Shown here: in pieces, positions 14,133 to 54,589 of the stretch
Position numbering within the stretch: the first letter of the stretch is position 1
How the letters are laid out: the number at the start of each line of letters is the position of its first letter
NCBI GenBank assembly: GCA_965116485.1
Contig: OZ220692.1
Span: forward strand, 3,250,134-3,314,133
Length of the DNA stretch: 64,000 bases
DNA from: Acidimicrobiales bacterium
GTDB taxonomy: Bacteria > Actinomycetota > Acidimicrobiia > Acidimicrobiales > Aldehydirespiratoraceae
Direction: 5' to 3'
Translations under genes and position numbers: made by a program
Notes under the pieces: generated by a model
Databases searched by the model: none
What the model saw: the letters and a program-made list of their open reading frames with translations, nothing else
Told to the model about the DNA's origin: nothing

Positions 14133-14133
14133 A

Positions 14134-14556: not shown

Positions 14557-14565
14557 GAGGCAACC

Positions 14566-16188
<1,623 letters not shown>

Positions 16189-16452
16189 GCGTCCTCACCT
16201 CCCGGCCCCTACCGTCGTAGCCACGTTACTTCTCGTTGGTTGTACGAAGTGTAGATTGCATGTGTGACAACTCATGTGCCGACGCGTTTCAGCGGTGAGG
16301 ACGGCAACGAAATCGGAGAGAGAATCGCCGAGTCGTTCGGGCTCCAACCGCAATCGGCCGAAGAAGAGACTTTCGCCACGTCCAATGCCATCGCGATGAC
16401 GGAAGCCGAATCTTGGTAGCACAAGGTTTGGGCGCTGAGGCGGCCGCCGACT

Positions 16453-37720: not shown

Positions 37721-37766
37721 GCCTCGCGTCATGAGCCTGGTTTCATGAGCCTGGTTTCATGAGCCT
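37715..37766 (+). repeat. 14-nt tandem repeat x4 (TCATGAGCCTnnnn) at the iolB/aldolase junction
   Basis: tcatgagcct occurs at 37715, 37729, 37743 and 37757. Each copy contains an overlapping ATG/TGA (ATGA). Confidence 0.9.
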
Positions 37767-38616
37767 CGAGGGCATTTCACACAACGGCCGCTTCTGCGTG
37801 CTCGCGATCGACCACCGTGATTCGTTGCTGAAGTTCCTGTCACCGGCTGATCTCGACGCGGTTTCGGCTGATCAGCTCACCACCCTGAAGACCGACATCG
37901 TGCGTGAACTGGCGCCGTTGGCCACCGGGGTGATGCTCGAACCCGAGTATTCGATCCCCCAGGTCGCTGACGCCGGAGCTCTGCCTGAAGGCATCGGTTT
38001 CGTGGCCGCTCTCGAGTCGCAGGGCTACCTCGGCGAGTTGGGTTCTGCGCCCACGACCGTTCTCGACGGCTGGTCTGTTGAGGCGGCCGCGGCCAGCGGC
38101 GCGGCTGCTGTGAAGCTGCTGCTGCCGTACCATCCCGACCGTGCTCTGGCCTCCGTGCAGCGGGCGGTTGCCGCAGAGGTGATCGCCGAGTGCCGCCGAG
38201 TCGGAATCCCGTTGGTCCTCGAACCGCTGTATTACGATCTCGACAGCCCGCACGACAGGCGCCGAGTCGTCATCGAAACCGCCCGAGCGTTCGCCGCGGC
38301 CGACCCTCATCTGCTGAAGCTGCCGTTCCCGGTCGATCCGACCCTTGAGCCTGACCGCAGCGTCTGGCTCGACGCCTGTGTGGAGATGAACGCGCTGATT
38401 CCGATGCCGTGGACGCTGCTGTCGGGCGGCGGCGACTTCGATTCGTTCTTCGCGCAGGTCGAGGTTGCGCTCGAGGCCGGTGCGGCGGGATGCATGGTCG
38501 GCCGTGCCCTCTGGGGCGAAGCAGCCCAAGCCCCCAACTCCGACCGCCTCACAGTCCTGAACACCCTGATCGCCCCCCGCCTGTCCCGCCTCCACTCCTT
38601 GATCTGCAACCCCTAG
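37759..38616 (+). CDS. Class I aldolase of the LacD/YihT family (probable 5-dehydro-2-deoxyphosphogluconate aldolase of the iol pathway)
   Basis: 285 aa. NGRFCVLAIDHRDSL, KLLLPYHPD and MPWTLLSGGGDFDSFFAQVEVALEAGAAGCMVGRALWGE resemble tagatose-bisphosphate/sulfofructosephosphate aldolases. Confidence 0.75.
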   Translation: MSLEGISHNGRFCVLAIDHRDSLLKFLSPADLDAVSADQLTTLKTDIVRELAPLATGVMLEPEYSIPQVADAGALPEGIGFVAALESQGYLGELGSAPTTVLDGWSVEAAAASGAAAVKLLLPYHPDRALASVQRAVAAEVIAECRRVGIPLVLEPLYYDLDSPHDRRRVVIETARAFAAADPHLLKLPFPVDPTLEPDRSVWLDACVEMNALIPMPWTLLSGGGDFDSFFAQVEVALEAGAAGCMVGRALWGEAAQAPNSDRLTVLNTLIAPRLSRLHSLICNP

Positions 38617-38732
38617 CGTCCACGATTCGGCGAGCCGACCGTAGGAAATTGATTAATTTTCAATATTTTCCAATATAGTTTGTTCAGCCGTATACAGTGA
38701 GATTTCAAGACCAAGCGTTAGCAGAGTACGCT
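38376..38732 (+). repeat. Direct repeat copy 1 (attL-like): last ~80 codons of the aldolase gene plus 116 bp downstream
   Basis: Aligns without indels to 50946-51302 (offset 12570). I count ~16 mismatches, and the final ~80 bp are identical. Confidence 0.95.
38668..38696 (+). promoter_or_regulatory. Candidate sigma70-type promoter TTCCAA-N17-TATACA inside the AT-rich part of the direct repeat (second copy at 51238-51266)
   Basis: AT-rich segment gaaattgattaattttcaatattttccaatatagtttgttcagccgtataca in otherwise GC-rich DNA. It lies directly upstream of the first ORF on each side. Confidence 0.35.
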
Positions 38733-38762: not shown

Positions 38763-38966
38763 ATGGCCACCAAGCACTTGCAGCAAGGGCTCGCCTCAGT
38801 CAGCGACCAAGAAGAGGACGAACAAACTCTGACCATTGAGGATCTCAAGGCCAGCACCGGCAAAGGGCCGCGCCTGGATTCCGAGGACATCGCCAACACC
38901 TACTACAGCGACGAGGAATTTCTCGCCGCGCTCGAGGCTAGGCGCAACAAAAACTCAACCGCGTAA
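38763..38966 (+). CDS. Small acidic protein, putative antitoxin of the following RelE/ParE-like gene
   Basis: ATG at 38763 preceded by GAGAGGA; 67 aa, MATKHLQQGLASVSDQEEDEQTLTIEDLK.... The assignment rests on position upstream of the toxin-like gene. Confidence 0.45.
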   Translation: MATKHLQQGLASVSDQEEDEQTLTIEDLKASTGKGPRLDSEDIANTYYSDEEFLAALEARRNKNSTA

Positions 38967-38977
38967 GCGGCCGTCCA

Positions 38978-39280
38978 TTGCCCACTCACTTCGAGACGCA
39001 AGCGTTCTTGCGCGATCAACGCAGACTCACGCCCCAGCAAGCGGACCGCTTCCGAGTCCGCCTAGGGGATTTCATTGACGACCTGCGGGAGATGGAAGAA
39101 GGGCGACGACGCTGGTTCCGTTCGGGACTTCGCGTCAAGAAGCTGTCCGCTGCATCAGGAATGTACGAGATGTCGTGGGCTCCAGACGGCCGCGCGACTT
39201 TCGCAATCGGTGACCCCATCGTCAGTGGCAAATTGCACATTGTGTGGTTGCGGGTCGGCGGTCATGAAGTCCTTCCGTAA
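38978..39280 (+). CDS. RelE/ParE-superfamily toxin-like protein
   Basis: 100 aa. The pattern F..D...L......F...L......GLRVKKL....GMYEMSWAPDGRATF......HIVWLRVGGH is typical of RelE/ParE-fold toxins. Confidence 0.6.
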   Translation: MPTHFETQAFLRDQRRLTPQQADRFRVRLGDFIDDLREMEEGRRRWFRSGLRVKKLSAASGMYEMSWAPDGRATFAIGDPIVSGKLHIVWLRVGGHEVLP

Positions 39281-39368: not shown

Positions 39369-42300
39369 GTGAGCGAATCAGACGGTGGGGGCCTGTTCAT
39401 CGTCGACAACAGCGTCTCGGGCTGGACGGGGCTGGAGTATCTCCGCCAATGGAGCGACTTGGCCCGGTCGTTCGACATCGCGACGGGGTTCTTCGAAATT
39501 GGGGCTCTGCTTGCACTTGATGGCGACTGGCAGAAACTTGAGAAGATCCGCTTGCTGATGGGCGACGAGGTGTCGCTTCGCACCAAGGCGGTGTTCACGG
39601 AAGCGCTCCGGAAACGTGTAGGCCGGCTCAACGACAGTTTGGAGCGAGAAAAGGGGCCTAATCCGTTCCTTGAGGGTGTCGCGGCGGTGGTTGAGGCGAT
39701 TGCTGAAGGGCGGATCGAGTGCCGCGTGTACCGGCGCGACAAGTTCCACGCGAAGACCTACATCACCCACGCCAAGTTCGATGTCGTCGGTGCACAGGCC
39801 TTGGTCGGTTCCAGCAACTTCACCAACCCAGGGCTCACTCAGAACATTGAGTTGAACATTCAGGTCCAGAGTGGGCGCGAAGTGGCCCAGCTCCAAGATT
39901 GGTTCGACACGCACTGGGCCGATGGGGAGGACGTAACGGCCGATGTGTTACGCACAATTCAGCGACATACGGCTGAGTATTCGCCGTTTGACGTGTACGC
40001 CAAAGCACTGCACGAGTTCTTCCGCGGCCGTGAGTTGACGGCCGGTGAGTGGGACGAATCTCATTCAAAGATGTTCGGACATCTCGATCGCTACCAGCAC
40101 GAGGCTTACTGGTCGTTGATGAAAATTGCCCGTCGTTACGGCGGTGCTTTCTTATGCGACGGCGTGGGTCTCGGTAAGACCTTCGTAGGACTGATGCTGA
40201 TTGAACGGTTGGTGTTGCATGAGAACAAGAGGGTGGTGTTGTTCGCTCCGAAAGCAGCTCGTGAGGGGGTGTGGGAACCCCATCTGCAGCGTTGGCTTCC
40301 CCACATAGGCGGGGTCGGCGGTGGTGCCGACTTCTCTAGCCTGAGCGTGTTCAGCCATACCGACTTAGGGCGTGGCGGCGACTTTCCTATGAGGTTTGAG
40401 CGCATCACAGATCTCGCTGACGCGGTGATAGTCGATGAAGCCCACCATTTTCGCAATCGGGGAAGTCGCGGCAATCCCAGCAACGGCTCCGACATCGTGC
40501 AGGGCACCGATGATTCCCAAGACCGTCGTTCTCGTTACTACCGGCTCTACGACATGCTGGACAGCTCCCAGCGCTCAAAGATGCTGTTCTTGTTGACAGC
40601 CACACCGGTCAATAACCGGCTCGCTGATTTCCGCCACATGACCGAGTTGTTCACCCGCGGCGACGAAGCCTTCTTTTCTGACAGTCTTGGAGTAAACAAC
40701 CTTTCGGCACACTTCAACGTTAAGGAACGTGCCCTACAGAGTTCTCTCAGAAGCAGTGATCCGGACGAGAGTTCCGAGCGCGCCGGTTCGATTCTCTCCG
40801 AGGGGATGACTCCTGAGGCTCGTGATGCGCTAGCGGCAGATGAGGTGTTCAGCGCGCTGGTAGTGCAACGCAGCCGCTCCTACGCCAAAGCCAGTCAGAT
40901 TCAGGAGCGAGGCGAGTCGGCTGCGTTCCCCGAGCGCAAGTCTCCTCGGGTTGCGGATTATTCGATCAGATCTTCCTACGGACAGGTTCTCGAAATGTTC
41001 GAGACGGCATTCCAACGCCAGCAGCCGCTCTTCTCGCTGGCTATGTATTATCCGCTCGCCCACTACATCGGTCCTGATGACATCAACCCGCTTGAGGAAA
41101 ACCGCCAGCGCCAAGTGGTTGGGCTTATTCGCACAATGTTCTTGAAGCGGTTTGAGAGCTCGGTCTACGCGTTCGAGAAATCACTCGATCGACTGCTGCG
41201 CAAGTTGCTGGCTTTCGCGGTTGTCCATTGTGAGCCGGGAGCAGAACAGGATCGCCTCGACATCTGGAAGCGTCAGCACGCGGAAGTAATCGGTTATCGC
41301 CCCGAGGTCCAGTTGGAGCTCGACCTGACCGATGCGGAGACCGATGACGAAGATGCCGACGAGGATGTGGTGCCTCAGGAACTGTTGGAGGCGGTGACCG
41401 ATCTCGACCGCGCCGACTACGACGTAGCGGCGATCCTTGAGAAGACGTTTGAGGACCTTGACGAGATTGTCAGGTTCCAAGCTGCCATTAGTCAGATCAC
41501 GCCCGATCAAGACGACAAGGTGCGCAAACTCATCCGATTACTGAGCACGAAGGACCTAGCAAATCGCAAGGTGCTTGTGTTTACCGAGTTTGCGGACACA
41601 GCTCGTTATGTGGAGTCGCGGCTCGTTGCCGCTGGAGTGACTGGACTCGCCCGAATCGACGGTGGGTCAACGGCGGATCGCGCTGATGTAATCCGTCGGT
41701 TCTCGCCTTACTACAACGGCACCAACACGGAGGAATTGCGCAATCGAGGGCAGGACGAGATCCGGGTACTGATCTCTACAGATGTGCTCTCCGAAGGTCT
41801 CAATCTCCAGGACGCCACACGATTGGTCAACTACGACCTTCATTGGAATCCGGTCCGGTTGATGCAAAGAATCGGCCGTGTGGACCGTCGCATGAGCCCT
41901 GAGATTGAACGGTGTCTAACCGAGGACCACCCTGAGTCAGCCGCCGACCGGGGCACGGTACGGTACTGGAACTTCCTTCCGCCAGAAGACCTTGAACGAA
42001 TACTGAAGCTATACGAGCGGGTCACCGGCAAGACTCTGCTCATCTCAAGCACGCTGGGCATTGAGGGTCGCAAGCTGCTTCGCCCTGATGACGACTACGA
42101 CCCGTTACGAGAGTTCAACGCCAACTACGAGGGCACCCGGACGACCGTGGAGGAGATGCATCTGGAGTACCAAGCACTACTCCAGCGCAATCCCGATCTA
42201 CCCGAGCGTCTTGACGGATTGCCTGGTTCGGTCTTCTCCGGCCGCAAGCAGCTCGCAAAGGGTCTACGCGGCGTTTTCTTCTGCTATTCCCTCCCTGCTC

Positions 42301-42578
42301 TTGACTCTGACCGCGGCGCTTTCACGCTGGAGGCCGGCCCCACTCGTTGGTACCTGTACGACTTGGACGACGACACGATTATCGAATCTCCTAATGAGAT
42401 AGTCGCGAGCATTCGTTCCAAACCCAATACCCCTCGTCGCTGTTCTACCGCACGCGGGACCTTAACGGAGGTCCGCGATAAGGTCGCGCGCCATCTGCGT
42501 AACACCTACCTCAAACAGGTCAACGCCCCCATTGACGCCCCAGATCCCGCTTTGCGCTGCTGGATGGAACTGAACTGA
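39369..42578 (+). CDS. PLD-family (HKD) nuclease domain fused to an SNF2-family helicase
   Basis: 1069 aa. N-terminal FHAKTYITHA...LVGSSNFTNPGL. Helicase motifs LCDGVGLGKT, VIVDEAHHFRN, LLTATPVNN, then STDVLSEGLNLQD and LHWNPVRLMQRIGRVDR. Confidence 0.9.
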   Translation: MSESDGGGLFIVDNSVSGWTGLEYLRQWSDLARSFDIATGFFEIGALLALDGDWQKLEKIRLLMGDEVSLRTKAVFTEALRKRVGRLNDSLEREKGPNPFLEGVAAVVEAIAEGRIECRVYRRDKFHAKTYITHAKFDVVGAQALVGSSNFTNPGLTQNIELNIQVQSGREVAQLQDWFDTHWADGEDVTADVLRTIQRHTAEYSPFDVYAKALHEFFRGRELTAGEWDESHSKMFGHLDRYQHEAYWSLMKIARRYGGAFLCDGVGLGKTFVGLMLIERLVLHENKRVVLFAPKAAREGVWEPHLQRWLPHIGGVGGGADFSSLSVFSHTDLGRGGDFPMRFERITDLADAVIVDEAHHFRNRGSRGNPSNGSDIVQGTDDSQDRRSRYYRLYDMLDSSQRSKMLFLLTATPVNNRLADFRHMTELFTRGDEAFFSDSLGVNNLSAHFNVKERALQSSLRSSDPDESSERAGSILSEGMTPEARDALAADEVFSALVVQRSRSYAKASQIQERGESAAFPERKSPRVADYSIRSSYGQVLEMFETAFQRQQPLFSLAMYYPLAHYIGPDDINPLEENRQRQVVGLIRTMFLKRFESSVYAFEKSLDRLLRKLLAFAVVHCEPGAEQDRLDIWKRQHAEVIGYRPEVQLELDLTDAETDDEDADEDVVPQELLEAVTDLDRADYDVAAILEKTFEDLDEIVRFQAAISQITPDQDDKVRKLIRLLSTKDLANRKVLVFTEFADTARYVESRLVAAGVTGLARIDGGSTADRADVIRRFSPYYNGTNTEELRNRGQDEIRVLISTDVLSEGLNLQDATRLVNYDLHWNPVRLMQRIGRVDRRMSPEIERCLTEDHPESAADRGTVRYWNFLPPEDLERILKLYERVTGKTLLISSTLGIEGRKLLRPDDDYDPLREFNANYEGTRTTVEEMHLEYQALLQRNPDLPERLDGLPGSVFSGRKQLAKGLRGVFFCYSLPALDSDRGAFTLEAGPTRWYLYDLDDDTIIESPNEIVASIRSKPNTPRRCSTARGTLTEVRDKVARHLRNTYLKQVNAPIDAPDPALRCWMELN

Positions 42579-45500
42579 TGAAGGGCCCGATCCAGTCCAA
42601 CCACGACGAATTCTTGCGTAATATCCGCACGTTCTCAGATGTCTGCGAGTACTTCGTTGACGAACTCGGGTGGCCGCTTGACGCATCGGCTCTTGAGGAC
42701 GAGAGTCTGAGTGACATCACCTTCGATTGGCACCCCAGCGAATTGGGTATCCCAGAAGAGCGGCTCAAGGACCTTAACCGGTTCCAACAGATGCGACCAT
42801 TGGCCACAGGCCAGCCATGGGGTGTGTTCTTCCTGGAGTTCGTCGGGCCGAAGTTACCCAGGACGCAAATCCGTCGGTTGCTGCTCGCGCTTGTTCAACG
42901 AAAACGCCAAACTCCGAATCCGGCACTACCGACCTGGGGACTTGATGACCTGTTGTTTGTGGTGCTGACCGGGGATGGTGACTCCTTAGAGGTGCATCTG
43001 CTCGCTTTCCGCGGCAGAACCCCTGGGTCGGCGGATTTCTTTTCGCTGTCGTGGCGCCCGGCACAGTCGCCAAATGCTCATCTAGGCCGCCTCCGCAACG
43101 AATTGTTGCCCAATCTGGCGTGGCCTCAAGACGTTGACGCCGAATCGTGGAGGACAGCCTGGCGAGAGGCATTCAAGTTACCGGTCGGCCAAGTAATCAA
43201 GGACTCGGCGCGCCTTGCCGAAAGAATGGCCAAGACCGCCCGCGATTTGAGAGACCAGATTCTTGACGAGCTTGGCAGAGAGCGAGCTCGGGAAGGTCGT
43301 CGGCAAGGAGACAACAGCAACAACATCGACGCCGACCTCTTGAACGGCGGTCGAATCACCACGGCACCGTTCTCTGGGTTGATGGGAGACATCAAATCGC
43401 AGCTTGTCGGCGACATCACTCGTGAGAGCTTTGCCGACATGTGCGCTCAGACTCTCGTGTACGGAACCTTGAGCAGCAGGGTGTCCAACCCTGAAGACTT
43501 TGGGTCTTCGCCTGTCTTTTCGACGATTCCGCTCGGTAACCCGTTTCTTGAAGCCTTCTTTGAGCAGGTCCACGATCAAGCCGTGGAACTCGATCTACCC
43601 GGTAGTGACCTTCCTCAACTGGTCGCCGACTTGCGGGAGACCAACATCGAGCACATTCTCGACCAGATCGGTTCTACAGCCAAGGGCGGTGACCCGGTCA
43701 TTCACTTTTACGAGGACTTTCTTAAGCAGTACGACCGGGAGATGCGTGCCGACGCCGGTGCTTTCTACACACCGCAACCTGCAGTGGAGTTCATCGTCCG
43801 CATGGTTGACGAACTACTGCGATCCCGATTCGGCCTGCCGCTGGGGTTGGCCGACGACGCCACATGGCAGGAGGTGGCCCAACACAACGATTTCGAAGTG
43901 CCAGAAGGTGTCGATCCTGCCAAGCCCTTTGTGTCGATGATTGATCCGGCCACCGGGACCGGGACGTTCCTAGTGGAGTGGCTACGCCGAGCTCAGATCT
44001 CTTACGAGCGGGCACAGAGTTCCAACAATTGGCCGAAGCACCTGCGTGAGCAGGTCCTAGGGTCGATGCACGCGTTCGAACTGATGCTTGCGCCATACAC
44101 CATTGCCCACCTCAAAGTCGCGCTCGAGTTGCACCAAGCAGGCGTTACCGATGGTGACACCTGTATTCGGATACTGCTCACCGACACGCTGGAGCACGCT
44201 GCCCGTCAAGGGCAATTCGAAACGATGAGCGACCCCGTTGCGGAAGAAGGCGAACGGGCCGCCAACCTCAAGGACAGTGAACGATTTACCGTTGTCATCG
44301 GAAACCCACCATGGGACCGCGAGCAGCAATCGGCAGAGGACACGGGAAAACGCAAGGGAGGTGTCGTCCGTCATGGAACCGGCGGAGTCGACGCGCTCCT
44401 CAAAGCCATGACGGAGCCCATGAAGACCGCGGGTCTCGGCCAACACATCAAGAATCTCTACAACGATTACGTCTATTTTTGGCGTTGGGCCACATGGCAG
44501 GCCACCGAAATGCCACCGGGCCCAGGAATTGTCGCACTTATCACGGCTTCGTCCTTTTTGGACGGAATTTCCATGTCTGGAGTACGTCACCATCTGCGGA
44601 ACGCCTTCGATTGTCTGTGGATTGTCGACTTAGGCGGAGATGGACGCGGCGCGCTCGCGGAAGAGAACATCTTCGACATTCAGACCCCAGTGGCTATAGC
44701 CATTGGAGTGCGCACTGGATTGCAGAGCAGCAACGAATGCAGGGTCCGTTACCTTAGGGTCGCCGGTACCCGACCCGAGAAGCTCGACCGCTTACGCCAA
44801 ATCAGCCTTGATGACATAACGGACAAGATCTCCGGTGATGGTTTTGACGTATTAACGCCTCGCAGCGACAGCCAGTACTACGACTGGCCCGAAATCGCCG
44901 AGTTATTTCCCTGGAGTCACTCTGGATGCCAACTAAAGCGGACATGGCCCATTGCCGAGAACCGGAACATCTTGGAAAAGCGGTGGCGCAAGTTGCTTGG
45001 CACCGTCCCCCGGCAACGTAAACCGCTGCTCAAAGAGACGAGGGACCGAAAGATTGAAACCACCCCTTTACCACTGCTGCGCTCTGGACCTCGACTGCAA
45101 CCGCTTGATCGCCTTGATCGGGACGACCAACCTGAAGGCCTAGAGAGATACGGATACCGTAGCTTCGATCGACAGTGGATGATTGCCGACAATCGTCTAG
45201 CCGACTTTCCGAGGCCTAACCTTTGGCGGCACCGTGGCTCACACCAGGTGTTCTTGACAACCCTGACCTCAACCAAGTTGGGACACGGCCCAGTGCTCAC
45301 CGCCACGCCCTACGTGCCAGACCTCCACTACTTCCGCGGTTCTTTTGGTGCCAAGAACGTTATGCCGCTCTATCGCGACGCGGCCGCTAACGAACCCAAC
45401 GCCACTCAGGACCTTCTCGCCACACTGAGCACGAAACTAGGCACCGAGATCACCGCCCAAGAGTTGTTTGCTTACGTTTACGCCCTAGGTGCCACATCCG

Positions 45501-46069
45501 CTTTCAGCGAGCGATTCGACGATGTGCTCGCCGAGCAGGCCGGACCCATCCATGTTCCGATCACCGCAGAAACTATCCTCTTCGAGCAGGCGGTTACACT
45601 CGGACGCGATCTTCTCTGGTGGCATACCTGGGGTGAACGCTTTCGTCCCGCCCGCCAAGCCCGTCTCCCAGATGGCCAAGCGACTGAAATCGAAGCTGTA
45701 GACGGACTGCCGGAATCGTTCGGCTACGACTCTGGTGCCCACGAGCTCAAGGTGGGCACCGGTGTCTTCGGCCCTGTGAGCCAAGAGGCTTGGGATTTCG
45801 AAGTATCCGGCCTGAGGGTCCTGCACTCCTGGCTCAGCTACAGAAAGAAGACCCGCAAAGGTAGAAAGTCCAGCCCACTAGACGATATCCGACCCACCCG
45901 CTGGACTCAGACCAACGAACTGCTCCTACTCCTATCCATCATTGAGCACACAATCGAGGTCACCCCCAAAGCCGCCGAACTCCTCGCCGAGATCGTCTCA
46001 GGCCCCCTGATCCCCGCCTCCGAACTCCCCACCCCCACCCCCGCCAACCGCAAACCCCCAAGGCAGTGA
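42578..46069 (+). CDS. Large N6-adenine DNA methyltransferase with a Type ISP-like C-terminal (specificity) region
   Basis: 1163 aa with GAFYTPQPAVEFIV, DPATGTGTFL and VIGNPPWD (motif IV). The C-terminal WDFEVSGLRVLHSWLSYRKK resembles the Type ISP C-terminal domain. The start overlaps the helicase stop (TGATG). Confidence 0.88.
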   Translation: MKGPIQSNHDEFLRNIRTFSDVCEYFVDELGWPLDASALEDESLSDITFDWHPSELGIPEERLKDLNRFQQMRPLATGQPWGVFFLEFVGPKLPRTQIRRLLLALVQRKRQTPNPALPTWGLDDLLFVVLTGDGDSLEVHLLAFRGRTPGSADFFSLSWRPAQSPNAHLGRLRNELLPNLAWPQDVDAESWRTAWREAFKLPVGQVIKDSARLAERMAKTARDLRDQILDELGRERAREGRRQGDNSNNIDADLLNGGRITTAPFSGLMGDIKSQLVGDITRESFADMCAQTLVYGTLSSRVSNPEDFGSSPVFSTIPLGNPFLEAFFEQVHDQAVELDLPGSDLPQLVADLRETNIEHILDQIGSTAKGGDPVIHFYEDFLKQYDREMRADAGAFYTPQPAVEFIVRMVDELLRSRFGLPLGLADDATWQEVAQHNDFEVPEGVDPAKPFVSMIDPATGTGTFLVEWLRRAQISYERAQSSNNWPKHLREQVLGSMHAFELMLAPYTIAHLKVALELHQAGVTDGDTCIRILLTDTLEHAARQGQFETMSDPVAEEGERAANLKDSERFTVVIGNPPWDREQQSAEDTGKRKGGVVRHGTGGVDALLKAMTEPMKTAGLGQHIKNLYNDYVYFWRWATWQATEMPPGPGIVALITASSFLDGISMSGVRHHLRNAFDCLWIVDLGGDGRGALAEENIFDIQTPVAIAIGVRTGLQSSNECRVRYLRVAGTRPEKLDRLRQISLDDITDKISGDGFDVLTPRSDSQYYDWPEIAELFPWSHSGCQLKRTWPIAENRNILEKRWRKLLGTVPRQRKPLLKETRDRKIETTPLPLLRSGPRLQPLDRLDRDDQPEGLERYGYRSFDRQWMIADNRLADFPRPNLWRHRGSHQVFLTTLTSTKLGHGPVLTATPYVPDLHYFRGSFGAKNVMPLYRDAAANEPNATQDLLATLSTKLGTEITAQELFAYVYALGATSAFSERFDDVLAEQAGPIHVPITAETILFEQAVTLGRDLLWWHTWGERFRPARQARLPDGQATEIEAVDGLPESFGYDSGAHELKVGTGVFGPVSQEAWDFEVSGLRVLHSWLSYRKKTRKGRKSSPLDDIRPTRWTQTNELLLLLSIIEHTIEVTPKAAELLAEIVSGPLIPASELPTPTPANRKPPRQ

Positions 46070-46256: not shown

Positions 46257-49049
46257 ATGCGCGTAAGTGAACAACAAAAGATTGGCAAAGACGGCGAGCA
46301 CGCGGTTATCGGCCATTTTCGAAAGATTGGCTGGGAGCCAAGCTACGACAAGTCTTACGATGTGGGCACCGATTTTTTTGTTCACGCGCTCGACCCTGAG
46401 CGATTCGATCTTGGCGTCCAGCTCGGCGTGCAGGTCAAAACCGGATCTAGCTACTTCAGGGACAAGGTTATCCAAGGCGATGAACTCATTGGTTGGTGGT
46501 ACTACGAATCCAACACTCGCCATTTCGACCATTGGTCACAGCACAGTGTTCCGCACCTGCTTGTTCTACACGACCTTAGTAGCGAGACCTCACACTGGGT
46601 TCACGTCACTGAGGAGGCGCTCGTCTCCACTGGAAAGGGATGCAAGATCCTCGTACCAGCGGGACAAACGATAGACGAAGCCCACCGTGACGATATCCTT
46701 GTTGTGGCTTACAAGCGACCGACCTACGAACTGGAGGGGTCGGCGCTCGCGGGTGAAGCCCGCGACATCCCGCAGGAACATCGACTTCGTCATGCACTAG
46801 TTGCGCCCAGATTAGTCGTGCCACACCGTAACTCAGGCTTCCGAGACGAGATTGATGCCGTCCAAGCAGTCGCTCTTTTGACACAAGGTAGATTCCGCGA
46901 TCTCAAGCAATTCGCCAAGCAGCATCAATCCGTTCCCGACCCAGAAAGTACCAACCCGGATCCAGATTGGACCTGGCGGTTCGTCGCGGCGATATGGGAT
47001 TGGGCGCAAAATGACTCCATTACCCAGCTGAAGGACGCATTCGAATCCGCGCTCGAAAATAGATCCACGGTGGCAAGTGGCATTTTTCTAGCCTGCGCCC
47101 TCCAGCGGATTGAGCAATACGACGAAGCACTCGAAGTACTCGACAAGTTGGTAGCGATCGAAGGTCTCGAATCCGCCGACTACGGATGGGCTCTCGTTCA
47201 GCGAGCACGAACGAGGACCGAGGTTGGCGATAGAGACGGATGCCGCACCGACGCAACCACCGCGAAGAACTGTCTTGAGGCCACCAAGAAAGACGTAACC
47301 GTGTCTGCGTTCGCCGCTGCCGCTTCATCGCAACTCTTTGCTTTCAAAGAGCCCCGAAGCCTAAACGAGAGCGACTTCCGGGGACTGCTGGCAGCCGCCG
47401 ACCACACCGTCTCATGGTGGCGATCTCTGACTATCTCGTGGGCGCTAAGTGACTCAGTCGATTCACAGTTCAAAGCTTGGACCGAAAACCGATCACACGT
47501 TTGGATTAGCGAGGACAGGGAGGCTCTCAACCTATTTTCCGCCGAGCTCATGGCAGATCTCGCGGGCGAACACACTACATGGCGAGCGACATCAGCACTT
47601 GGAGCACGACAAAAACTCATTCGCGCCGCGACCTCCGAAGACGAACAAGCACAGCTAACCGAAGGGCTTGACACTCTCCGCCGCAGCGGAGACAACCAGT
47701 CCCTCAGGGCGGCCATCACCCATCTCCATCGGGTTGGCCCAATCAAACCGGTAGCAACAGCCATAGAAAAAGTCCCGCTGAATGGATGGACTCACACGAC
47801 CGCGGCTGCGAATTTCGAGGCTCTAGCGCAGGCTGGCGACCTTCTGAATGAGCAAGTTGCTAGTGAATTTCTTATTTGGAGCGCACGGATCGCTGCTGGG
47901 GATTCTGCGGAGTTCATAATTCTCGTCCGACCGATGTTCGCTGTCGAACACTACGCACTCAAAGCAGTGGCGCGCCTTCTGCCAGCGGCCGGTCCACCCG
48001 CGCATCGCGAACTTGCCAGCATTCTTTCTGCCCTACCAACCCCAACTCCAGATTCCCTAGTTCAAGATCTCGCGGCCATTGTCGAAGACCTCGGATTCGA
48101 CCTCATCGCAGAATCCGAGCGTGAGGGACTCTGGGCACTATGCGAACGAGATCAAGGGCCGGTTGGGAATGCCACACTCGGCTGGTTCGCATCTAATGGC
48201 AACCTGCATGCCCGTACTCAATTGAAAGCGCGCTCCGTAGGCGGTGATCTCGACGCGTTATCAACCCTTGGCGACGTTACCGCACTGGACACCTCGGAGG
48301 CTGCAGTCCTTATCCCCCACGTTGAGAGAATGGTTGCCGCTGGGTTATCCGACGCTCGAAACCACAAATACTCTCTCGGCGGTTTCGACGTAACCGAGAT
48401 ACTGACTCTATTGAACTTGTGGTTCCCCGACCAAGCAAGTTGGGATACCGTACTTTCACTGCTTAGCGAGCCCCTCGTGTCCACACGTGGCAAGCGCCGA
48501 ACCTGTTATCTCATATCAAGACTATCCACACGGCTACCTGAAGACGTTCAATCACACCTCAGGTCGAACATTGAGGACATACAGTCCGCCACTCCATTTT
48601 TTGGAGGAGAACCAGGAATCGGTGGAACGGGCCTCATGCTCGCTATCGCTACAGGTGCAATCGGCGAAGAGGCCGCCACCGTCGAGGCCATGAAACTCGC
48701 ATCAGGGTCTCCCCGGGATCGCTGCGATCTCGCTCGATTGCTAGGACTGGGTCAATGTTCACAAATCCAATCCATCTTGGCAGCACTTGTGGGCGACGGC
48801 CACTTTGAGGTGCGGCGTGTCGCAACCACCGCTCTTGGACAAATCGTATGCAATGACTCGAACACGTCACTGCACGATCTTGTGTGGGACATTGCGAACA
48901 AAGACGGCACTGACCTGCCCGTCGCGCTCCTAGTCGGCTTGGCTCGGGGTGAGGCACCACTGCCCGAGATCGGTTCAGAGATAGTGCAACAGCTTAAGCA
49001 CCATCGATCAGCGCTGGTAAGAGGTTACGCTAATCGCCTCTTGCGTTAG
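46257..49049 (+). CDS. DUF4365-like PD-(D/E)xK nuclease domain fused to a ~750-aa helical-repeat (TPR/HEAT-like) region
   Basis: 930 aa. N-terminal IGKDGEHAVIGHFRKIGWE...YDVGTDFFVH...LGVQVKTGSSYF. C-terminal HEAT-like HFEVRRVATTALGQI and HHRSALVRGYANRLL. I saw no P-loop. Confidence 0.7.
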   Translation: MRVSEQQKIGKDGEHAVIGHFRKIGWEPSYDKSYDVGTDFFVHALDPERFDLGVQLGVQVKTGSSYFRDKVIQGDELIGWWYYESNTRHFDHWSQHSVPHLLVLHDLSSETSHWVHVTEEALVSTGKGCKILVPAGQTIDEAHRDDILVVAYKRPTYELEGSALAGEARDIPQEHRLRHALVAPRLVVPHRNSGFRDEIDAVQAVALLTQGRFRDLKQFAKQHQSVPDPESTNPDPDWTWRFVAAIWDWAQNDSITQLKDAFESALENRSTVASGIFLACALQRIEQYDEALEVLDKLVAIEGLESADYGWALVQRARTRTEVGDRDGCRTDATTAKNCLEATKKDVTVSAFAAAASSQLFAFKEPRSLNESDFRGLLAAADHTVSWWRSLTISWALSDSVDSQFKAWTENRSHVWISEDREALNLFSAELMADLAGEHTTWRATSALGARQKLIRAATSEDEQAQLTEGLDTLRRSGDNQSLRAAITHLHRVGPIKPVATAIEKVPLNGWTHTTAAANFEALAQAGDLLNEQVASEFLIWSARIAAGDSAEFIILVRPMFAVEHYALKAVARLLPAAGPPAHRELASILSALPTPTPDSLVQDLAAIVEDLGFDLIAESEREGLWALCERDQGPVGNATLGWFASNGNLHARTQLKARSVGGDLDALSTLGDVTALDTSEAAVLIPHVERMVAAGLSDARNHKYSLGGFDVTEILTLLNLWFPDQASWDTVLSLLSEPLVSTRGKRRTCYLISRLSTRLPEDVQSHLRSNIEDIQSATPFFGGEPGIGGTGLMLAIATGAIGEEAATVEAMKLASGSPRDRCDLARLLGLGQCSQIQSILAALVGDGHFEVRRVATTALGQIVCNDSNTSLHDLVWDIANKDGTDLPVALLVGLARGEAPLPEIGSEIVQQLKHHRSALVRGYANRLLR

Positions 49050-49124: not shown

Positions 49125-50915
49125 CTACCACCAACGGCTTGATTTGAACGATTCCTCATAGGACACTCGGATCTCGTCCAAATGTTCAGTGCTCTCAAAA
49201 ACCCCAGCTGCAATCAATAGGTCTGCGTTGCGTTCAACCATTGCGCCGGGGCGTCGGCTCGTGCCCGACAACCGCCAAGCCGCTCTGCCCACCGGGCCGG
49301 TGTCCCAACCGGATCCGCTCACGAATGCGAGTCCGATTAGGAATTCAGTTTCGTCGAACAGGCCCTCAAACTGCTCATCCTCTCTAACGATCTCCAACAT
49401 CGCCGGGCGAAGCATCGCTAGGAGGTGATCCGAAACTGGTGTCTTGCGCCGCTCGAAACCATCGATCGATCGCTTTACCCAGTCAGGATCAAGCACATGC
49501 CACGACGCCGCTGCTACAGCCACAGGTTCAATTGAATTAAGTCCCTTCGCAGAAACTGTTCCTAGAACACGGGCGATCGAGTCCAGCCGGTTTGCTGCCG
49601 CAGCTCCCAAAGCAATGGCGTAGAGACAAAGTAGCGAAGGGTACTGCTGCATATAGAGCAGTACGGTCTTACCACTGCTTTCTGTTCTTCTGTTGGCGAG
49701 CCGGTCCACGGTTCTAGCCAAGAGCTGGTCGTGATCAGCACGATCCGAAAAGAAAGCTCCGGTGGCAAGGAGTTTAAGGAGGCCGGCAGTCGCTTCTTCA
49801 TATACCTGCATCTGTTCCCTGTACCGCTGCGGTCCGACCTGACCGTTCACCGATAACTCGTGCACGCGATCAATCACCTCATCAGTCGCACTCATCACGA
49901 GATCATGGAGCTTGATGCGATGGACAGGATCGGGGAGGTACTTCTTCAGTTGGGTCACCGCGATAGCCGTATCTATGGGACGCTGATCGATCGCCTCGCG
50001 AAGCGATTCGACCTTGTCCGCTAGTGACTCGAAGGCGTCGTCTGCGTCTTGAATCGAAAAATCGATTGCATCGCGGTGCGTCACGATCTCTTGTGCCTCT
50101 GGTTTCAGCCGTCCACGGTGGAGCCAATACGTGGCGAACCGACGACCGGGTGATCGAAGAATCGCGTCCCTGAGAGCTTTGTCCCACTCAGCCGACCACC
50201 CACAGACCACGAGTCCGTATTGGTCGAACACCTCGTCAAGCAGTGTGTCGATCTCCGCGTCGTAGCCCGCCAACTCGTCAACCGTGTTCTTAAGATCGGC
50301 TGACATGTAGTCGCCATGAACCTTGACAATTGTGCACCCACTATGGGTGATCGGCGTTGCACCAGCCGCGTGAACTGGGCTCGAAATCACAGTGGGCTGA
50401 ACTCCTGCATCCGTAAGCGCGAGTTCAAGCAACCGATCGAAGTTCGTAGTGACGATTACCTTGACAAAACCACCCGCAACCATTCGGGCGATCGCGTGAT
50501 GAGCCTTCGTCGGGAGTTTCAGACCTTGTTCCTTATCCTCCTCTGAGGGCTGAAAGTACTTTTCCAAGAGATTCCTTCGATCGCTTGGAGATGGAGCTAA
50601 CTCGCCTAGAAGAGCGGAGTAGTCAGGATCGCCCTCGGTTTGGCTTTGGTACCAGGACAACGGGTCATCTCCGGTATCTTCACCTCGCAACGTTGCGAGC
50701 CGCTTAGTGAGATCAAGCGTTACGTCCCAACCAGTCGGAACGCCCGAGTTGGCGCTAATGCCCGAACCGAGCAACAACGCGAATGTATTTGGGCCAGCAT
50801 GAATGCTGGACGCAAGCGAAACCATTGGGTCAGACGACACGGTGTCGAATCTACCGGACTCCTGTGACAACTCGGAGTCGCCCTTGCTTGGGGCGGCACG
50901 AACTTCGGGGTTCAT
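49125..50915 (-). CDS. SIR2-like (SIR2_2 type) NADase-family protein with a C-terminal helical domain of unknown function
   Basis: Start reassigned to ATG at 50915 (MNPEVRAAP...). FALLLGSGISANSGVPTGWD, VIVTTNFDRLLE and IVKVHGDY are the defence-type SIR2 motifs. The first 88 codons of the track ORF are antisense to the aldolase relic. Confidence 0.8.
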   Translation of the reverse strand: MNPEVRAAPSKGDSELSQESGRFDTVSSDPMVSLASSIHAGPNTFALLLGSGISANSGVPTGWDVTLDLTKRLATLRGEDTGDDPLSWYQSQTEGDPDYSALLGELAPSPSDRRNLLEKYFQPSEEDKEQGLKLPTKAHHAIARMVAGGFVKVIVTTNFDRLLELALTDAGVQPTVISSPVHAAGATPITHSGCTIVKVHGDYMSADLKNTVDELAGYDAEIDTLLDEVFDQYGLVVCGWSAEWDKALRDAILRSPGRRFATYWLHRGRLKPEAQEIVTHRDAIDFSIQDADDAFESLADKVESLREAIDQRPIDTAIAVTQLKKYLPDPVHRIKLHDLVMSATDEVIDRVHELSVNGQVGPQRYREQMQVYEEATAGLLKLLATGAFFSDRADHDQLLARTVDRLANRRTESSGKTVLLYMQQYPSLLCLYAIALGAAAANRLDSIARVLGTVSAKGLNSIEPVAVAAASWHVLDPDWVKRSIDGFERRKTPVSDHLLAMLRPAMLEIVREDEQFEGLFDETEFLIGLAFVSGSGWDTGPVGRAAWRLSGTSRRPGAMVERNADLLIAAGVFESTEHLDEIRVSYEESFKSSRWW

Positions 50916-50945
50916 CGAAGGCGCACGGTCCAGGACGCTTGATGG

Positions 50946-51186
50946 CTGTGAGGAGATGAACGCGCTGATTCCGATGCCGTGGACGCTGCTGTCGGGCGGC
51001 GGCGACTTCGAGTCGTTCTTCGCGCAGGTCGTGGTTGCGCTCGAAGCCGGTGCAGCGGGTTGCATGGTCGGCCGTGCCCTCTGGGGAGAGGCAGCCCAAG
51101 CCCCCAACTCCGACCGCCCCAGAGTCCTCAAAACCCTGATCGCCCCCCGCCTGTCCCGCCTCCACTCGTTGATCTGCAACCCCTAG
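50946..51186 (+). pseudogene. Orphan 3' fragment of the LacD/YihT-type aldolase gene
   Basis: Encodes ...EEMNALIPMPWTLLSGGGDFESFFAQVVVALEAGAAGCMVGRALWGEAAQAPNSDRPRVLKTLIAPRLSRLHSLICNP*, a paralogue of residues ~206-285 of the gene at 37759..38616. No upstream part is present. Confidence 0.9.
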
Positions 51187-51302
51187 CGTCCACGATTCGA
51201 CGATCCGACCGTAGGAAAATGATTAATTTTCAATATTTTCCAATATAGTTTGTTCAGCCGTATACAGTGAGATTTCAAGACCAAGCGTTAGCAGAGTACG
51301 CT
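50946..51302 (+). repeat. Direct repeat copy 2 (attR-like)
   Basis: See copy 1. It has the same length and ~95% identity by my count. Confidence 0.95.
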
Positions 51303-52420: not shown

Positions 52421-53155
52421 GGCTCTTCGCGTTTGAGGTCGGAGTCGGGGTTGTGGGGTGTTAGCGGTTGGTTGGGCGGGATCCTCCAGAATCGGGGTCA
52501 TAAACCACACCTGAACCTGGAGGATCGGTGTGGTGTGTGACCCTATAGGCATGTGTGAGTTGTTGGTGGGCCTCGGCGATGTCGACGTGTTGGGCGTCGA
52601 CGACGACCGTGGCGGCGGGCCGTTGAGGTTGAGTGTGCGAAGCCGGACTGCGCGTCCGTCGTGTGCGGGTTGTGGCGGCAAGTTGTGGTCCAAAGGAGAC
52701 CGGGCGGTGGAGCTGGTGGATCTGCCGAGCTTCGGCCGCCCGGCGAGGTTGGTGTGGCACAAACACCGGTGGAGATGCCCGAGTGAGGATTGCGGCGCGG
52801 GTTCGGTGACTGAACACAACCCTCAGGTCGCGCCGCCGCGGGCGTTGTTGACGACACGAGCAGCGCGTTGGGCGACACGCCAAGTCGGCCGTGGCCGTCC
52901 GGTGAGCGACGTCGCTTCGGACCTGGCGTGTTGCTGGTCGGCGGTGAACGACACGGTGCTGTGCTGGGGTCAAACGCTGCTCGACGCTGACACTGACCGG
53001 ATCGGCGCAACGACCGCACAGGGTCTCGACGAAACCCTGTTCTGTCGTGAGGGCCGTTATAGACACAAGGCGTGGGCGACCAGCATCGTCGACGTCGCCG
53101 GCGGCAAACTGTTGGACATAGTGCCTCACAGAACAGCTGAACCAGGTGCTCTACT
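52421..53155 (+). mobile_element. Truncated ISL3-family IS: left IR plus the first ~209 codons of the transposase (52530..53159)
   Basis: IR GGCTCTTCGCGTTTGAGGTCGG at 52421. The transposase N-terminus has RPSCAGCGGKLWSKGD...HRWRCPSEDCG and ends at a repeat array. No right end was found. Confidence 0.8.
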
Positions 53156-53267
53156 GTGAACGGTAGCTTGATGTGGAACGGTAGCGTAGATGTGCAATGG
53201 TAGCGTAGATGTGGAACGGTAGCGTAGATGTGGAACGGTAGCGTAGACTAAGTCGGCACGGTAGACC
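53156..53267 (+). repeat. 19-bp tandem repeat (GTGGAACGGTAGCGTAGAT), ~5 copies plus a degenerate unit
   Basis: gtgaacggtagcttgat / gtggaacggtagcgtagat / gtgcaatggtagcgtagat / gtggaacggtagcgtagat / gtggaacggtagcgtagac / taagtcggcacggtagacc. Confidence 0.9.
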
Positions 53268-53290: not shown

Positions 53291-54589
53291 ATGGCTGCTG
53301 ACTCTCTCGAAGGCGGCGACCCGCTGGCTTATCGGCCCAGGGTCGTGGACAAAGACCTGCCTGCGCTCCTGCGTGCGCTGCCCGCGATCAGCATCGAAGG
53401 GGCGCGTGCTGTGGGCAAGACTCGCACGGCACGAGAGTTCGCCAACACCGTCTACAACCTCGACGACCCCGACATCATGAGCGAGGTGCAGTCCGACCCG
53501 CGACTGCTTCTCTCCGGGCAGCCGCCGATCCTGATCGACGAATGGCAGAGGTTCCCGCCGGCATGGGACCTGGTGCGTCGCGCCGTCGACGACTCATTCA
53601 CTCCCGGGCGCTTCATACTCACCGGATCGGCCCGACCCAGCGAGTCTCCCACGCACTCGGGCGCAGGTCGGATTGTCACGGTACGAATGCGGACCATGAC
53701 ACTCTGCGAGCGCTGGCAACAGTCCGCAGTGAGCCTCGCACAGCTCCTCACCGGCGATAGGGCACCGATCGACGCCGTGTCGGAAGTACTGCTCGAGGAA
53801 TATGTCGACGCGATCATCGCGGGCGGGTTTCCCGGCTGGCAGTCAGCCGGCGAGCGCGCGAGAAGGCTGCTCACCGATGGCTACCTGCACCGCGTCGTCG
53901 AGCACGACATGCCCCTCGCCGGCAGCCGGGTGCGGAATCCGGCGGCGTTGAACCGCTGGCTTGAGGCGTACGCAGCGGCCGTGTCCACCTCAGCCTCCTA
54001 CGAGGCGATTCGGGACGCTGCGACAGCCGGAGAGCATTCCAAGCCTGCCAAGTCCACGACATTGGCCTATCGCGACACCCTCGAGTCGATGTGGGTACTG
54101 GAACCACTTCCGGCGTGGCTCCCCAAAGGCGGCCATCTCAACCGGCTCAAGCGGTCGCCCAAGCACCACCTCGCCGACACGGCGCTGGCCGTCCGCCTCC
54201 TCGGGGCCACCCGAGAGACGCTGCTCGGGCTGGAAGCTCCGGTTGGCACGCACCGAGACGACCGGTCGCTGCTGGGGCATCTCTTCGAGTCCCTCGTGAC
54301 CCGGGATGTGCGCGTCTACGCCCAATCCTGCGATGCCCGAGTGGGGCATCTCCGCACTTGGAACGGTGCCCAAGAGGTGGATCTGATCGTGGAACACGAC
54401 CGCGGCGTGCTGGCCGTTGAGGTCAAGCTCGCCGCCGAGGCAAACCCGCGAGACACGCGGCACATCCGATGGCTGCGAGACCGACTCGGGCCGGCTCTTC
54501 TTGACGCAGTGGTGGTGACCACGGGCCGGCGCGCCTACCGCGACGACGACGGCATCGCCGTGGTCCCCGCCGCATTGCTCGGCCCCTAG
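53291..54589 (+). CDS. AAA-type ATPase with DUF4143 domain
   Basis: 432 aa with ISIEGARAVGKTRTA (P-loop), ILIDEWQR (Walker B) and RFILTGSA. Confidence 0.8.
   Translation: MAADSLEGGDPLAYRPRVVDKDLPALLRALPAISIEGARAVGKTRTAREFANTVYNLDDPDIMSEVQSDPRLLLSGQPPILIDEWQRFPPAWDLVRRAVDDSFTPGRFILTGSARPSESPTHSGAGRIVTVRMRTMTLCERWQQSAVSLAQLLTGDRAPIDAVSEVLLEEYVDAIIAGGFPGWQSAGERARRLLTDGYLHRVVEHDMPLAGSRVRNPAALNRWLEAYAAAVSTSASYEAIRDAATAGEHSKPAKSTTLAYRDTLESMWVLEPLPAWLPKGGHLNRLKRSPKHHLADTALAVRLLGATRETLLGLEAPVGTHRDDRSLLGHLFESLVTRDVRVYAQSCDARVGHLRTWNGAQEVDLIVEHDRGVLAVEVKLAAEANPRDTRHIRWLRDRLGPALLDAVVVTTGRRAYRDDDGIAVVPAALLGP

Follow-up and report, generated by a model that had tools for sequence, protein, structure and literature searches.

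Several actively studied systems are built around a Snf2 helicase and a large N6-adenine methylase, among them DISARM, BREX-3, ARMADA, Hma/BR, and MANTIS, and all of them depend on additional ATPases or scaffolds. A Snf2-methylase gene pair forms the core of class 1 DISARM (bioRxiv 10.1101/2021.12.28.474362), of ARMADA (bioRxiv 10.1101/2025.09.15.676423), and of both BREX type 3 and the DUF499-centred BREX-related (BR) systems (PMC12839542). HKD domains fused to SWI2/SNF2 ATPases were likewise placed in bacterial restriction-modification (R-M) systems by Aravind and colleagues (PMC3417536; see also PMC2292703). The two themes meet in BR type 2 (Gao_RL, MANTIS), whose effector MtsD is an HKD-helicase dimer with one phospholipase D (PLD) site, and whose MtsD-mediated restriction requires the methylase complex MtsABC and prefers inverted site pairs (bioRxiv 10.64898/2026.09.23.753747). 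Neither HKD-Snf2 proteins with a place in R-M nor modules that join Snf2 to a methylase (DISARM, ARMADA, BR/MANTIS) are new to the literature. Here we analyze a 64,000-nucleotide stretch of the genome of an Acidimicrobiales bacterium (GenBank assembly GCA_965116485.1, contig OZ220692.1, positions 3,250,134 to 3,314,133, forward strand; hereafter the window), in which two overlapping genes, A and B, encode a PLD-Snf2 protein and an N6-adenine methyltransferase (MTase). The further core proteins that DISARM, ARMADA, and the DUF499-centred systems need (DrmA/B, the YprA-like ArmC, DUF499, DUF3780) are absent from this pair. Judging by their sequences, we think it likely that A and B constitute an autonomous two-subunit, ATP-dependent R-M system, and phage defence by the self-contained pair is its most likely function. 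In the literature, with paywalled papers and REBASE outside our search, we found no description or name for such a two-gene system, only generic mentions of HKD-Snf2 proteins and related multi-gene systems.

The features of the pair, in window coordinates, are as follows.

39369-42578, + strand: gene A, 1069 amino acids (aa), GTG start; single-HKD PLD nuclease fused to a Snf2-type superfamily 2 (SF2) ATPase; predicted restriction/motor subunit
39747-39818, + strand: HKD motif of A, H127-A-K129 ... G147-S-S-N150, in one copy
40161-40445, + strand: ATPase motifs I-II of A, from GVGLGKT (aa 265-271) through DEAH (aa 356-359)
41517-41891, + strand: RecA2 lobe/Helicase_C of A, including motif VI, QRIGRVDRR (aa 833-841)
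42576-42580, + strand: TGATG junction, in which the TGA stop of A and the ATG start of B share one base; reads AAC-TGA-TG-AAG
42578-46069, + strand: gene B, 1163 aa, ATG start; N-terminal domain, helical linker, gamma-class N6-adenine MTase, and Type ISP-type target recognition domain (TRD); predicted modification/recognition subunit
42578-43177, + strand: N-terminal domain of B (aa 1-200; hereafter the N-domain), a family-specific alpha/beta domain and predicted adaptor for A
43190-43687, + strand: helical linker of B (aa 205-370), from the secondary structure of an AlphaFold2 model
43688-44887, + strand: MTase core of B (aa 371-770), with FYTP, motif I DPATGTGTF (nucleotides 43943-43969), and motif IV NPPW (nucleotides 44303-44314)
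44900-45919, + strand: TRD of B (Type_ISP_C, aa 775-1114), Pfam E value 7e-70; aligns by profile with the TRDs of DrdV and LlaBIII

An initial annotation of this stretch, made from its letters alone, had described A as a single-HKD PLD-SNF2 protein and B as an MTase with a Type ISP-like C terminus, joined by a 1-nucleotide overlap; open reading frames (ORFs), Pfam matches, and the junction sequence all agree with this description. In A, Pfam places PLDc_2 at aa 105-183, SNF2-rel_dom/ResIII at aa 239-313, and Helicase_C at aa 717-840, and the HKD residues, GVGLGKT, DEAH, TATP, and QRIGRVDRR are all invariant in an alignment of 13 homologous sequences. The PLD domain is of a nuclease-type family, matching the Pfam family RE_NgoFVII as well as BfiI. 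Because the HKD motif is present in a single copy, the active site would need a dimer, as in BfiI, SauUSI, and MtsD. A Pfam scan found no recognizable DNA-specificity or modified-base reader domain in A. In B, the corresponding matches are N6_Mtase, Eco57I, and Type_ISP_C, the last covering 338 of 342 profile positions, such that the anticipated similarity to the Type ISP specificity domain is borne out. Motif I and NPPW are intact, and with motif I ahead of motif IV and a TRD at the C terminus, the order is that of a gamma-class enzyme. Neither protein contains an Mrr domain.

Homologs of A number in the thousands, the closest belonging to metagenome-assembled genomes (MAGs) of sponge-associated Acidimicrobiia. 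A scan with one genome per species yielded at least 558 relatives of A, and 80 loci with 10-kb flanks were retained. These span at least 12 phyla; hosts include Acidimicrobiia, Acidobacteriota, Alpha-, Gamma-, and Deltaproteobacteria, Planctomycetota, Chloroflexota, Verrucomicrobiota, Spirochaetales, and Gemmatimonadota, among others, with Bradyrhizobium (sp. CCH5-F6), Chromatium okenii (DSM 169), and Roseomonas (R. chloroacetimidivorans JCM 31050) as cultured carriers among the proteobacterial loci. Homologs of A that are 53-93% identical occur in many phyla. One locus was found on viral contigs, and a plasmid collection held only A relatives at 24-30% identity.

By tblastn and ORF clustering, the only proteins common across the 80 loci are A and B. 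Using a hidden Markov model (HMM) of the N-domain, we detected an ORF carrying this domain directly 3' of A in 72 of ~75 informative loci. Five of the other eight loci run off the contig, and three are informative exceptions: one in which A is C-terminally truncated and followed by a kinase gene, one with an IS1595 transposase 3' of A, and one with an NYN-domain gene after A, just before the contig end. Junctions between A and B in related loci are mostly a 4-nucleotide gap or overlaps of -1, -4, or -8, and when the search was started in reverse, from distant B homologs, a PLD-Snf2 gene was found to end 4 nucleotides upstream. The linkage of A to B is thus strict and exclusive, and with 72 of ~75 informative loci drawn from many phyla the pairing is not a matter of chance. 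DrmA, DrmB, DUF499, and DUF3780 do not recur among these loci. With A and B alone kept together, the count supports the initial annotation in its proposal of a two-component R-M-like system in its own right, as opposed to a piece of a known one.

The two proteins are conserved to different degrees: across loci, A is 53-89% identical, versus 26-69% for B. The least conserved region is the TRD, with 19% identity to distant homologs and a mean pairwise identity of 34%. A well-kept A beside a hypervariable TRD is the pattern expected of a constant motor and a diversifying specificity subunit, and by this signature the pair reads as a mobile two-gene R-M-type module.

The N terminus of B, ~350 aa that had initially seemed unassignable, resolves into a novel domain of ~200 aa and a helical linker. 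A search of B aa 1-360 against 1.84 billion cluster representatives returned 653 clusters, 118 of them at E<=1e-30. Among the best 150 of the 653, the match starts within the first few residues (~residue 5) and complete proteins are ~1050-1555 aa long, where an A-B fusion would be ~2200 aa; neither a helicase fusion nor an A-B fusion was found in this set. All 42 of 42 diverse full-length members tested carry Type_ISP_C. An AlphaFold2 model of B aa 1-372, built from an 86-sequence alignment (predicted local distance difference test score, pLDDT, 88.7; predicted template modeling score 0.84), shows an alpha/beta domain at aa ~10-200 followed by long helices at aa 205-362. Foldseek found nothing significant for this model in the PDB. 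The top non-significant match was the N-terminal part of DrdV, at an E value of 0.04 and colinear over 377 columns; LlaGI aligned over 190 columns with a probability of 0.77, and a few low-probability PD-(D/E)XK nucleases also appeared. The LlaGI alignment most plausibly involves the helical part of the model (the output carries no coordinates), and the linker shows weak structural alignment with the pre-MTase helical regions of both LlaGI and DrdV. The N-domain HMM had no matches among Pfam and PDB sequences. A match of B aa 137-193 to the UvrB-homology module of Mfd (PDB 2b2n, residues 186-238) was non-significant, at an E value of 0.62, and was disregarded.

Among the conserved positions of the N-domain, in alignments of 20-86 sequences, Trp, Phe, Pro, Gly, and Arg predominate: W32, P33, Q79, P80, G82, F84, R99, R110, W120, D124, F127, W159, W182, P183, W191, W195, and F199. 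In the same alignments, no D...(D/E)xK or other acidic/lysine triad is conserved, and on these grounds we conclude that the domain is non-catalytic. It occupies the slot held by the nuclease in Type IIL enzymes and by the nuclease-helicase-coupler in Type ISP enzymes. A motif of the form WP-x-D...W-R-x-x-W-x-x-A-F closes the domain (window positions about 42986-43156).

What the N-domain might do instead is suggested by one divergent locus and by co-variation. In Bacterium BMS3Abin06 (locus L073), an A homolog of 54% identity is followed by an MTase of another class (13544-18073; Eco57I, MmeI_Mtase, and DUF7008, without Type_ISP_C), which we read as PglX-like and which carries the same N-domain (E 1.3e-29). 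The presence of this domain on a different MTase class, again beside A, is evidence for a portable partner adaptor. Across loci, divergence of the N-domain correlates with that of the RecA2 lobe and of the inter-lobe insert of A (Spearman 0.75 and 0.71), and for pairs with A below 70% identity these values are a modest 0.44 and 0.30. The corresponding values are 0.56 and 0.55 for the MTase, falling to 0.07 and 0.02 in the more divergent pairs, and 0.55 and 0.51 for the TRD, falling to 0.16 and 0.05. Locus pairs are non-independent, and the co-variation is for this reason suggestive only. From the co-variation with the helicase lobe of A, together with L073, we infer that the N-domain acts as an adaptor coupling the methylase to A.

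These properties of the N-domain and the linkage data bear on an alternative in which A and B are two independent, co-travelling genes: B a self-contained Type IIG/IIL enzyme with a divergent nuclease N-domain, and A a stand-alone SauUSI-like PLD-helicase nuclease, modification-dependent or otherwise autonomous. We give this little credence, although it has points in its favor. The PADLOC model REase_MTase_IIG matches B at 2.4e-223 (742 bits); the best PDB match to B, DrdV, is colinear with it; the N-terminal model has the non-significant DrdV match and the weak, scattered PD-(D/E)XK matches noted above; and, as SauUSI and MtsD illustrate, a PLD-SF2 enzyme can itself be an effector. However, the N-domain lacks a conserved nuclease triad, A lacks a recognizable specificity or modified-base reader domain, and near-obligate linkage in a fixed order with frequent overlap would be unusual for separate systems. 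Moreover, A homologs without B are degraded or disrupted by insertion sequences.

Comparison of B with solved enzymes clarifies its labels. By profile, the MTase and TRD of B match DrdV (3e-72, spanning positions 432-1099 of alignment A2), LlaBIII (5.5e-69), and LlaGI (1e-62). The full-length model of B is poor (pLDDT 65) and was for this reason used for coarse fold ranking only; that ranking keeps the profile order, with DrdV at a Foldseek E value of 2e-21 and BrxX/PglX far behind. With the MTase-TRD portion equally close to DrdV, the description "Type ISP-like" is right for the TRD but non-specific. Several B homologs are named "type ISP restriction/modification enzyme" by NCBI and several "predicted helicase" by JGI, while A homologs are labelled just "helicase-related protein". 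Formally, the NCBI names and the PADLOC match assign B to described subtypes, an outcome that the initial annotation had listed among those that would refute its proposal. We treat the ISP and IIG labels as mis-annotations, because both presuppose a nuclease, and ISP also a helicase, that has no counterpart in B. Automated tools would probably call one gene only, as Type IIG or ISP, and overlook its nuclease-motor partner.

The DrdV comparison extends to the layout of the whole protein. DrdV (PDB 7lo5), of the Type IIL/IIG MmeI family, is the best PDB match to B by both profile and fold and shares its order of N-terminal domain, helical region, MTase, and TRD. DrdV and MmeI, however, possess an active N-terminal PD-ExK nuclease and need no ATPase, whereas the N-domain of B is without the conserved triad and is paired obligately with a PLD-Snf2 protein.

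The Type ISP enzymes LlaGI and LlaBIII (PDB 5ffj, 4xqk) are homologous to B in their gamma N6-adenine MTase and in the TRD at the C terminus. They are organized on the same principle as the pair (nuclease, SF2 motor, MTase, TRD) and, as would be expected for the pair, methylate one strand of an asymmetric site. They differ in being single polypeptides rather than two ORFs with a 1-nucleotide overlap; their N-terminal nuclease is of the Mrr-family PD-(D/E)XK type, whereas that of A is a single-HKD PLD; they use their own SF2 helicase-like motor and coupler, whereas the motor of A is Snf2/RapA/DrmD-like; and they carry a nuclease-helicase-coupler where B has its novel N-terminal domain. A has no match to LlaGI or LlaBIII. 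Thus, of the proposed "split Type ISP" identity, the homology of the MTase and TRD stands, and the remainder does not: the nuclease is not Mrr, the motor is Snf2, the MTase-TRD is as much like DrdV, and fused A-B forms are missing from the best 150 of the 653 clusters.

On the side of A, no close relative has a solved structure; the best solved sequence match is RapA, around motifs V-VI only, and the best named profiles are those of larger anti-phage systems. The best PADLOC matches are C3a139 "HKD+Snf2" (1.8e-50) and DrmD (3.8e-32), with PLD_Helicase at 3e-23. Among NCBIfam models, DISARM_DrmD scores 134 bits (6e-39) against a cut-off of 610, the anti-phage PLD-helicase model NF042964 141 bits (6e-41) against 1100, and DISARM_DrmC_I 28 bits against 133. 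C3a139 and the HKD-SWI2/SNF2 fusions reported in predicted R-M operons (Iyer/Aravind 2006-2012) have the architecture of A, but the reports are generic, and in the papers searched the obligate methylase partner with N-domain and Type_ISP_C and the autonomy of the two genes are not defined.

These matches raise the question of whether a larger system, such as class 1 DISARM, BR type 2/MANTIS/Gao_RL, or ARMADA, is present here as a remnant or in minimal form, dependent on partners encoded elsewhere. Besides the matches of A to DrmD and NF042964, this explanation can appeal to the Snf2-MTase pair as the common core of DISARM, ARMADA, BREX-3, and BR systems; still, we judge it highly improbable. 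Class 1 DISARM (DrmD-DrmMI-DrmA-DrmB-DrmC) shares with the pair an inventory of Snf2 helicase, PLD, and N6-adenine MTase, DrmD is the best named helicase match of A, and DrmMI methylates a non-palindromic site. But the core proteins DrmA and DrmB (DUF1998) are missing from the pair, and the PLD is fused to Snf2 rather than encoded separately as DrmC. Further, the scores of A lie far under the NCBIfam DrmD and DrmC cut-offs, and B, which has its own TRD, is matched by no DrmMI model. The domain inventory behind the "minimal DISARM" label therefore holds, whereas the family assignments do not. In agreement with the initial annotation, neither drmA nor drmB is found in the window: Pfam and PADLOC identify no DrmA, DrmB/DUF1998, DUF499, or DUF3780 protein among its large ORFs. 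MANTIS (MtsA-D) also joins a PLD(HKD)-SF2 effector to an N6-adenine MTase, one that leaves asymmetric sites hemimethylated. MtsD resembles A in architecture, with A scoring weakly against the anti-phage PLD-helicase models and far under the NF042964 cut-off. MANTIS needs the DUF499 AAA+ ATPase MtsA and the small protein MtsB, however, neither of which is present in the window or recurrent in the 80 loci, and it is without the Type ISP-type TRD and novel N-domain of B. (MtsB corresponds to DUF3780 in the Nucleic Acids Research paper and is printed as DUF3870 in the MANTIS preprint.) Finally, 72 intact pairs in many phyla would call for repeated identical decay. "Split Type ISP" and "minimal DISARM" are analogies, not memberships.

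The subunit logic of the pair most resembles that of Type III Mod/Res enzymes, assembled from unrelated modules. As in Type III systems, neither modification nor restriction would take place without a methylase/recognition subunit, on which a helicase-nuclease subunit would depend, and asymmetric sites, hemimethylation, and ATP dependence are to be expected of the pair. The parts differ: Type III Mod is a beta-class enzyme with an internal TRD, whereas B is gamma-class with a C-terminal TRD; Res combines a Rad25-like SF2 motor with a PD-(D/E)XK nuclease, whereas A is PLD-Snf2; and the gene order is mod-res in Type III, versus res-mod here.

We propose the following mechanism for a two-subunit R-M system of this kind. 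The TRD of B, of the Type ISP/DrdV type, would read a short asymmetric site, and the gamma-class MTase would mark self DNA by methylating one adenine on one strand. At an unmethylated site, the N-domain and helical linker of B may recruit, dock, or switch on A. A, as a predicted Snf2-type double-stranded DNA translocase, would then couple ATP hydrolysis to movement along, or remodelling of, the DNA, and two A protomers would join their half-sites into one HKD catalytic center that makes the cut. Cleavage probably requires two sites or two converging complexes, with some rule of site orientation; such a requirement would spare host DNA that replication has left hemimethylated, a safeguard also used by Type ISP and Type III enzymes and apparently by MANTIS. 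Because A has no recognizable DNA-specificity domain, it should be harmless without B, and a harmless lone A fits both the res-then-mod order and the translational coupling of the two genes. Contact through the N-domain, hemimethylation, translocation, and the anti-phage activity that would result are each predicted in this scheme from the features of the two proteins and from their relatives.

An alternative outcome of site recognition is methylation-guided exclusion in the style of BREX or DISARM, in which A blocks replication by remodelling or nicking the DNA, or its PLD acts on non-DNA substrates, and no site-directed double-strand breaks are made. BREX and class 1 DISARM do use asymmetric N6-methyladenine without classical restriction, loss of the methylase is non-toxic there, and MANTIS cleavage has not been reconstituted in vitro. 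Nonetheless, we regard this alternative as unlikely. The HKD motif of A is strictly conserved in a PLD domain of nuclease type, with its RE_NgoFVII and BfiI matches, and in MANTIS the PLD mutant H122A and Walker A mutants abolish restriction, with methylase-dead variants tolerated only in combination with a nuclease mutation (bioRxiv 10.64898/2026.09.23.753747).

A number of points weigh against an autonomous two-subunit R-M system. To the modest co-variation of divergent pairs, the non-independence of locus pairs, and the poor full-length model of B can be added the behavior of MtsD, for which neither in vitro cleavage nor binding to MtsA-C in size-exclusion chromatography was seen (bioRxiv 10.64898/2026.09.23.753747). 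Methylation-based relatives rely on further ATPases or scaffolds, such as MtsA/B for MANTIS and BrxC for BREX, and a simple model in which Mod recruits Res may for these reasons be too simple. Promoter and terminator scans gave results at or below shuffle expectation and are silent on operon structure. In addition, a superfamily 1 (SF1) helicase (AAA_30/UvrD_C_2, RecD/UvrD-like, ~1270 aa) lies directly after B in 8 of the 80 loci.

The SF1-helicase loci that we inspected (L025, 17141-20806; L036, 17244-21059; L037, 17246-21070; L081, 12157-15972) are from Terracidiphilus (Acidobacteriota) and Bradyrhizobium, and the placement of the helicase recalls ArmD of ARMADA type II. With its presence in just 8 of 80 loci, we rejected it as a general third component. 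Two further kinds of variation concern B itself. In eight MAG loci (L001, L006, L011, L012, L015, L017, L033, and L060), B is split into 2-3 ORFs, which could reflect assembly frameshifts, pseudogenization, or phase variation. Subsets of B homologs carry extra C-terminal domains, namely Peptidase_S24/LexA-like, SLFN_AlbA_2, or GmrSD_N (L050, 13134-17684; P0256 and many P02xx-P03xx proteins; A5 members); from the S24 fusion there is a hint that some systems are controlled by autoproteolysis or through the SOS response.

If A and B do form a two-subunit R-M system, a broader possibility follows, which we put forward more tentatively, at just short of an even chance. The pair may stand for a class of ATP-dependent R-M systems that is autonomous, widespread, and as yet without a name. 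In this class the N-domain, an adaptor not described before, would plug a portable PLD-Snf2 motor-nuclease into different methylase chassis, mostly of the Type ISP type and of the PglX type in L073. The Snf2-methylase core of DISARM, ARMADA, BREX-3, and MANTIS would have its simplest natural form here. The pair would then be the simplest two-protein system in which to learn how site recognition licenses a PLD-Snf2 nuclease, and a tractable model for the coupling of unmethylated-site recognition to a translocating nuclease in those larger systems. There is also a stake for annotation: the pair is widespread, simple, experimentally tractable, and at present mis-annotated, with IIG, ISP, and "predicted helicase" labels implying activities foreign to B and with its partner hidden under a generic name.

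The setting of the pair in the window is that of a defence island. Upstream lies an inositol-catabolism operon (GFO/IDH/MocA oxidoreductases, a TPP enzyme, KduI/IolB, and a DeoC-type aldolase), at the end of which a direct repeat begins. The surrounding features are as follows.

37759-38616: DeoC/LacD-type aldolase gene, whose 3' end is duplicated in the right repeat
38367-38666, + strand: left 300-nucleotide direct repeat, comprising the last 250 nucleotides of the aldolase gene and 50 nucleotides downstream
38763-38966 and 38978-39280, + strand: two small ORFs of 67 and 100 aa at the left edge of the island, without a Pfam match
46257-49049, + strand: DUF4365 protein, 930 aa, with an N-terminal Mrr-like nuclease domain; PADLOC Aga_REase, 2.9e-13
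49125-51179, - strand: SIR2 protein, 684 aa; PADLOC candidate single-gene system PDC-S65, 2e-190
50937-51236, + strand: right 300-nucleotide direct repeat, 94% identical to the left copy and 12.57 kb further on

Between the repeat copies, GC content drops from ~0.63 to ~0.57, and on the basis of this fall and of the repeats themselves we place the pair within an inserted island of 12.6 kb. The repeats suggest an integration scar, or a hotspot for defence genes where the inositol-catabolism operon ends; the island contains no tRNA gene and no integrase ORF that we could find. The N-terminal domain of the DUF4365 protein resembles the restriction endonuclease domains associated with Argonaute, and the C-terminal ~750 aa, largely unassigned, give only a weak HEAT/WYL hint. 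The TTG start of the SIR2 gene is probably over-extended into the repeat copy, and the size and arrangement of the two small ORFs suggest a toxin-antitoxin pair. Neither the DUF4365 gene nor either small ORF recurs among the 80 loci, and SIR2 is seen again just as a 90-residue fragment in L001, the closest relative. With none of them kept beside the pair, we rejected the DUF4365 protein, the SIR2 protein, and the two small upstream ORFs as components of the system.

This setting also bears on whether the pair has any role in defence, since a Snf2 remodeller and an orphan methylase might conceivably serve a housekeeping function in epigenetic regulation or DNA repair. Orphan N6-adenine methylases with regulatory roles exist, and RapA is the closest solved helicase by sequence. 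Even so, we assign such a function very little likelihood. The pair sits in a low-GC, repeat-bounded island beside SIR2 and DUF4365, and its neighbors in other genomes include GmrSD, which accompanies it in one locus, HEPN-Snf2, and toxin-antitoxin genes. Its TRD is hypervariable while its nuclease motif is conserved, and it has a patchy spread over phyla at 53-64% identity, a distribution that points to horizontal transfer.

Elsewhere in the window, a 19-nucleotide tandem repeat, GATGTGGAACGGTAGCGTA, occurs in 4-5 copies at 53170-53264, directly upstream of an AAA_14/DUF4143 ATPase gene (53291-54589) and adjoining an N-terminal fragment of an ISL3 transposase (52530-53159). A second patch of lower GC, at 12-16 kb, has in or near it a HipA-family kinase and a Type I HsdM methylase (8746-10305, 14566-16188), which suggests another defence or toxin-antitoxin islet.

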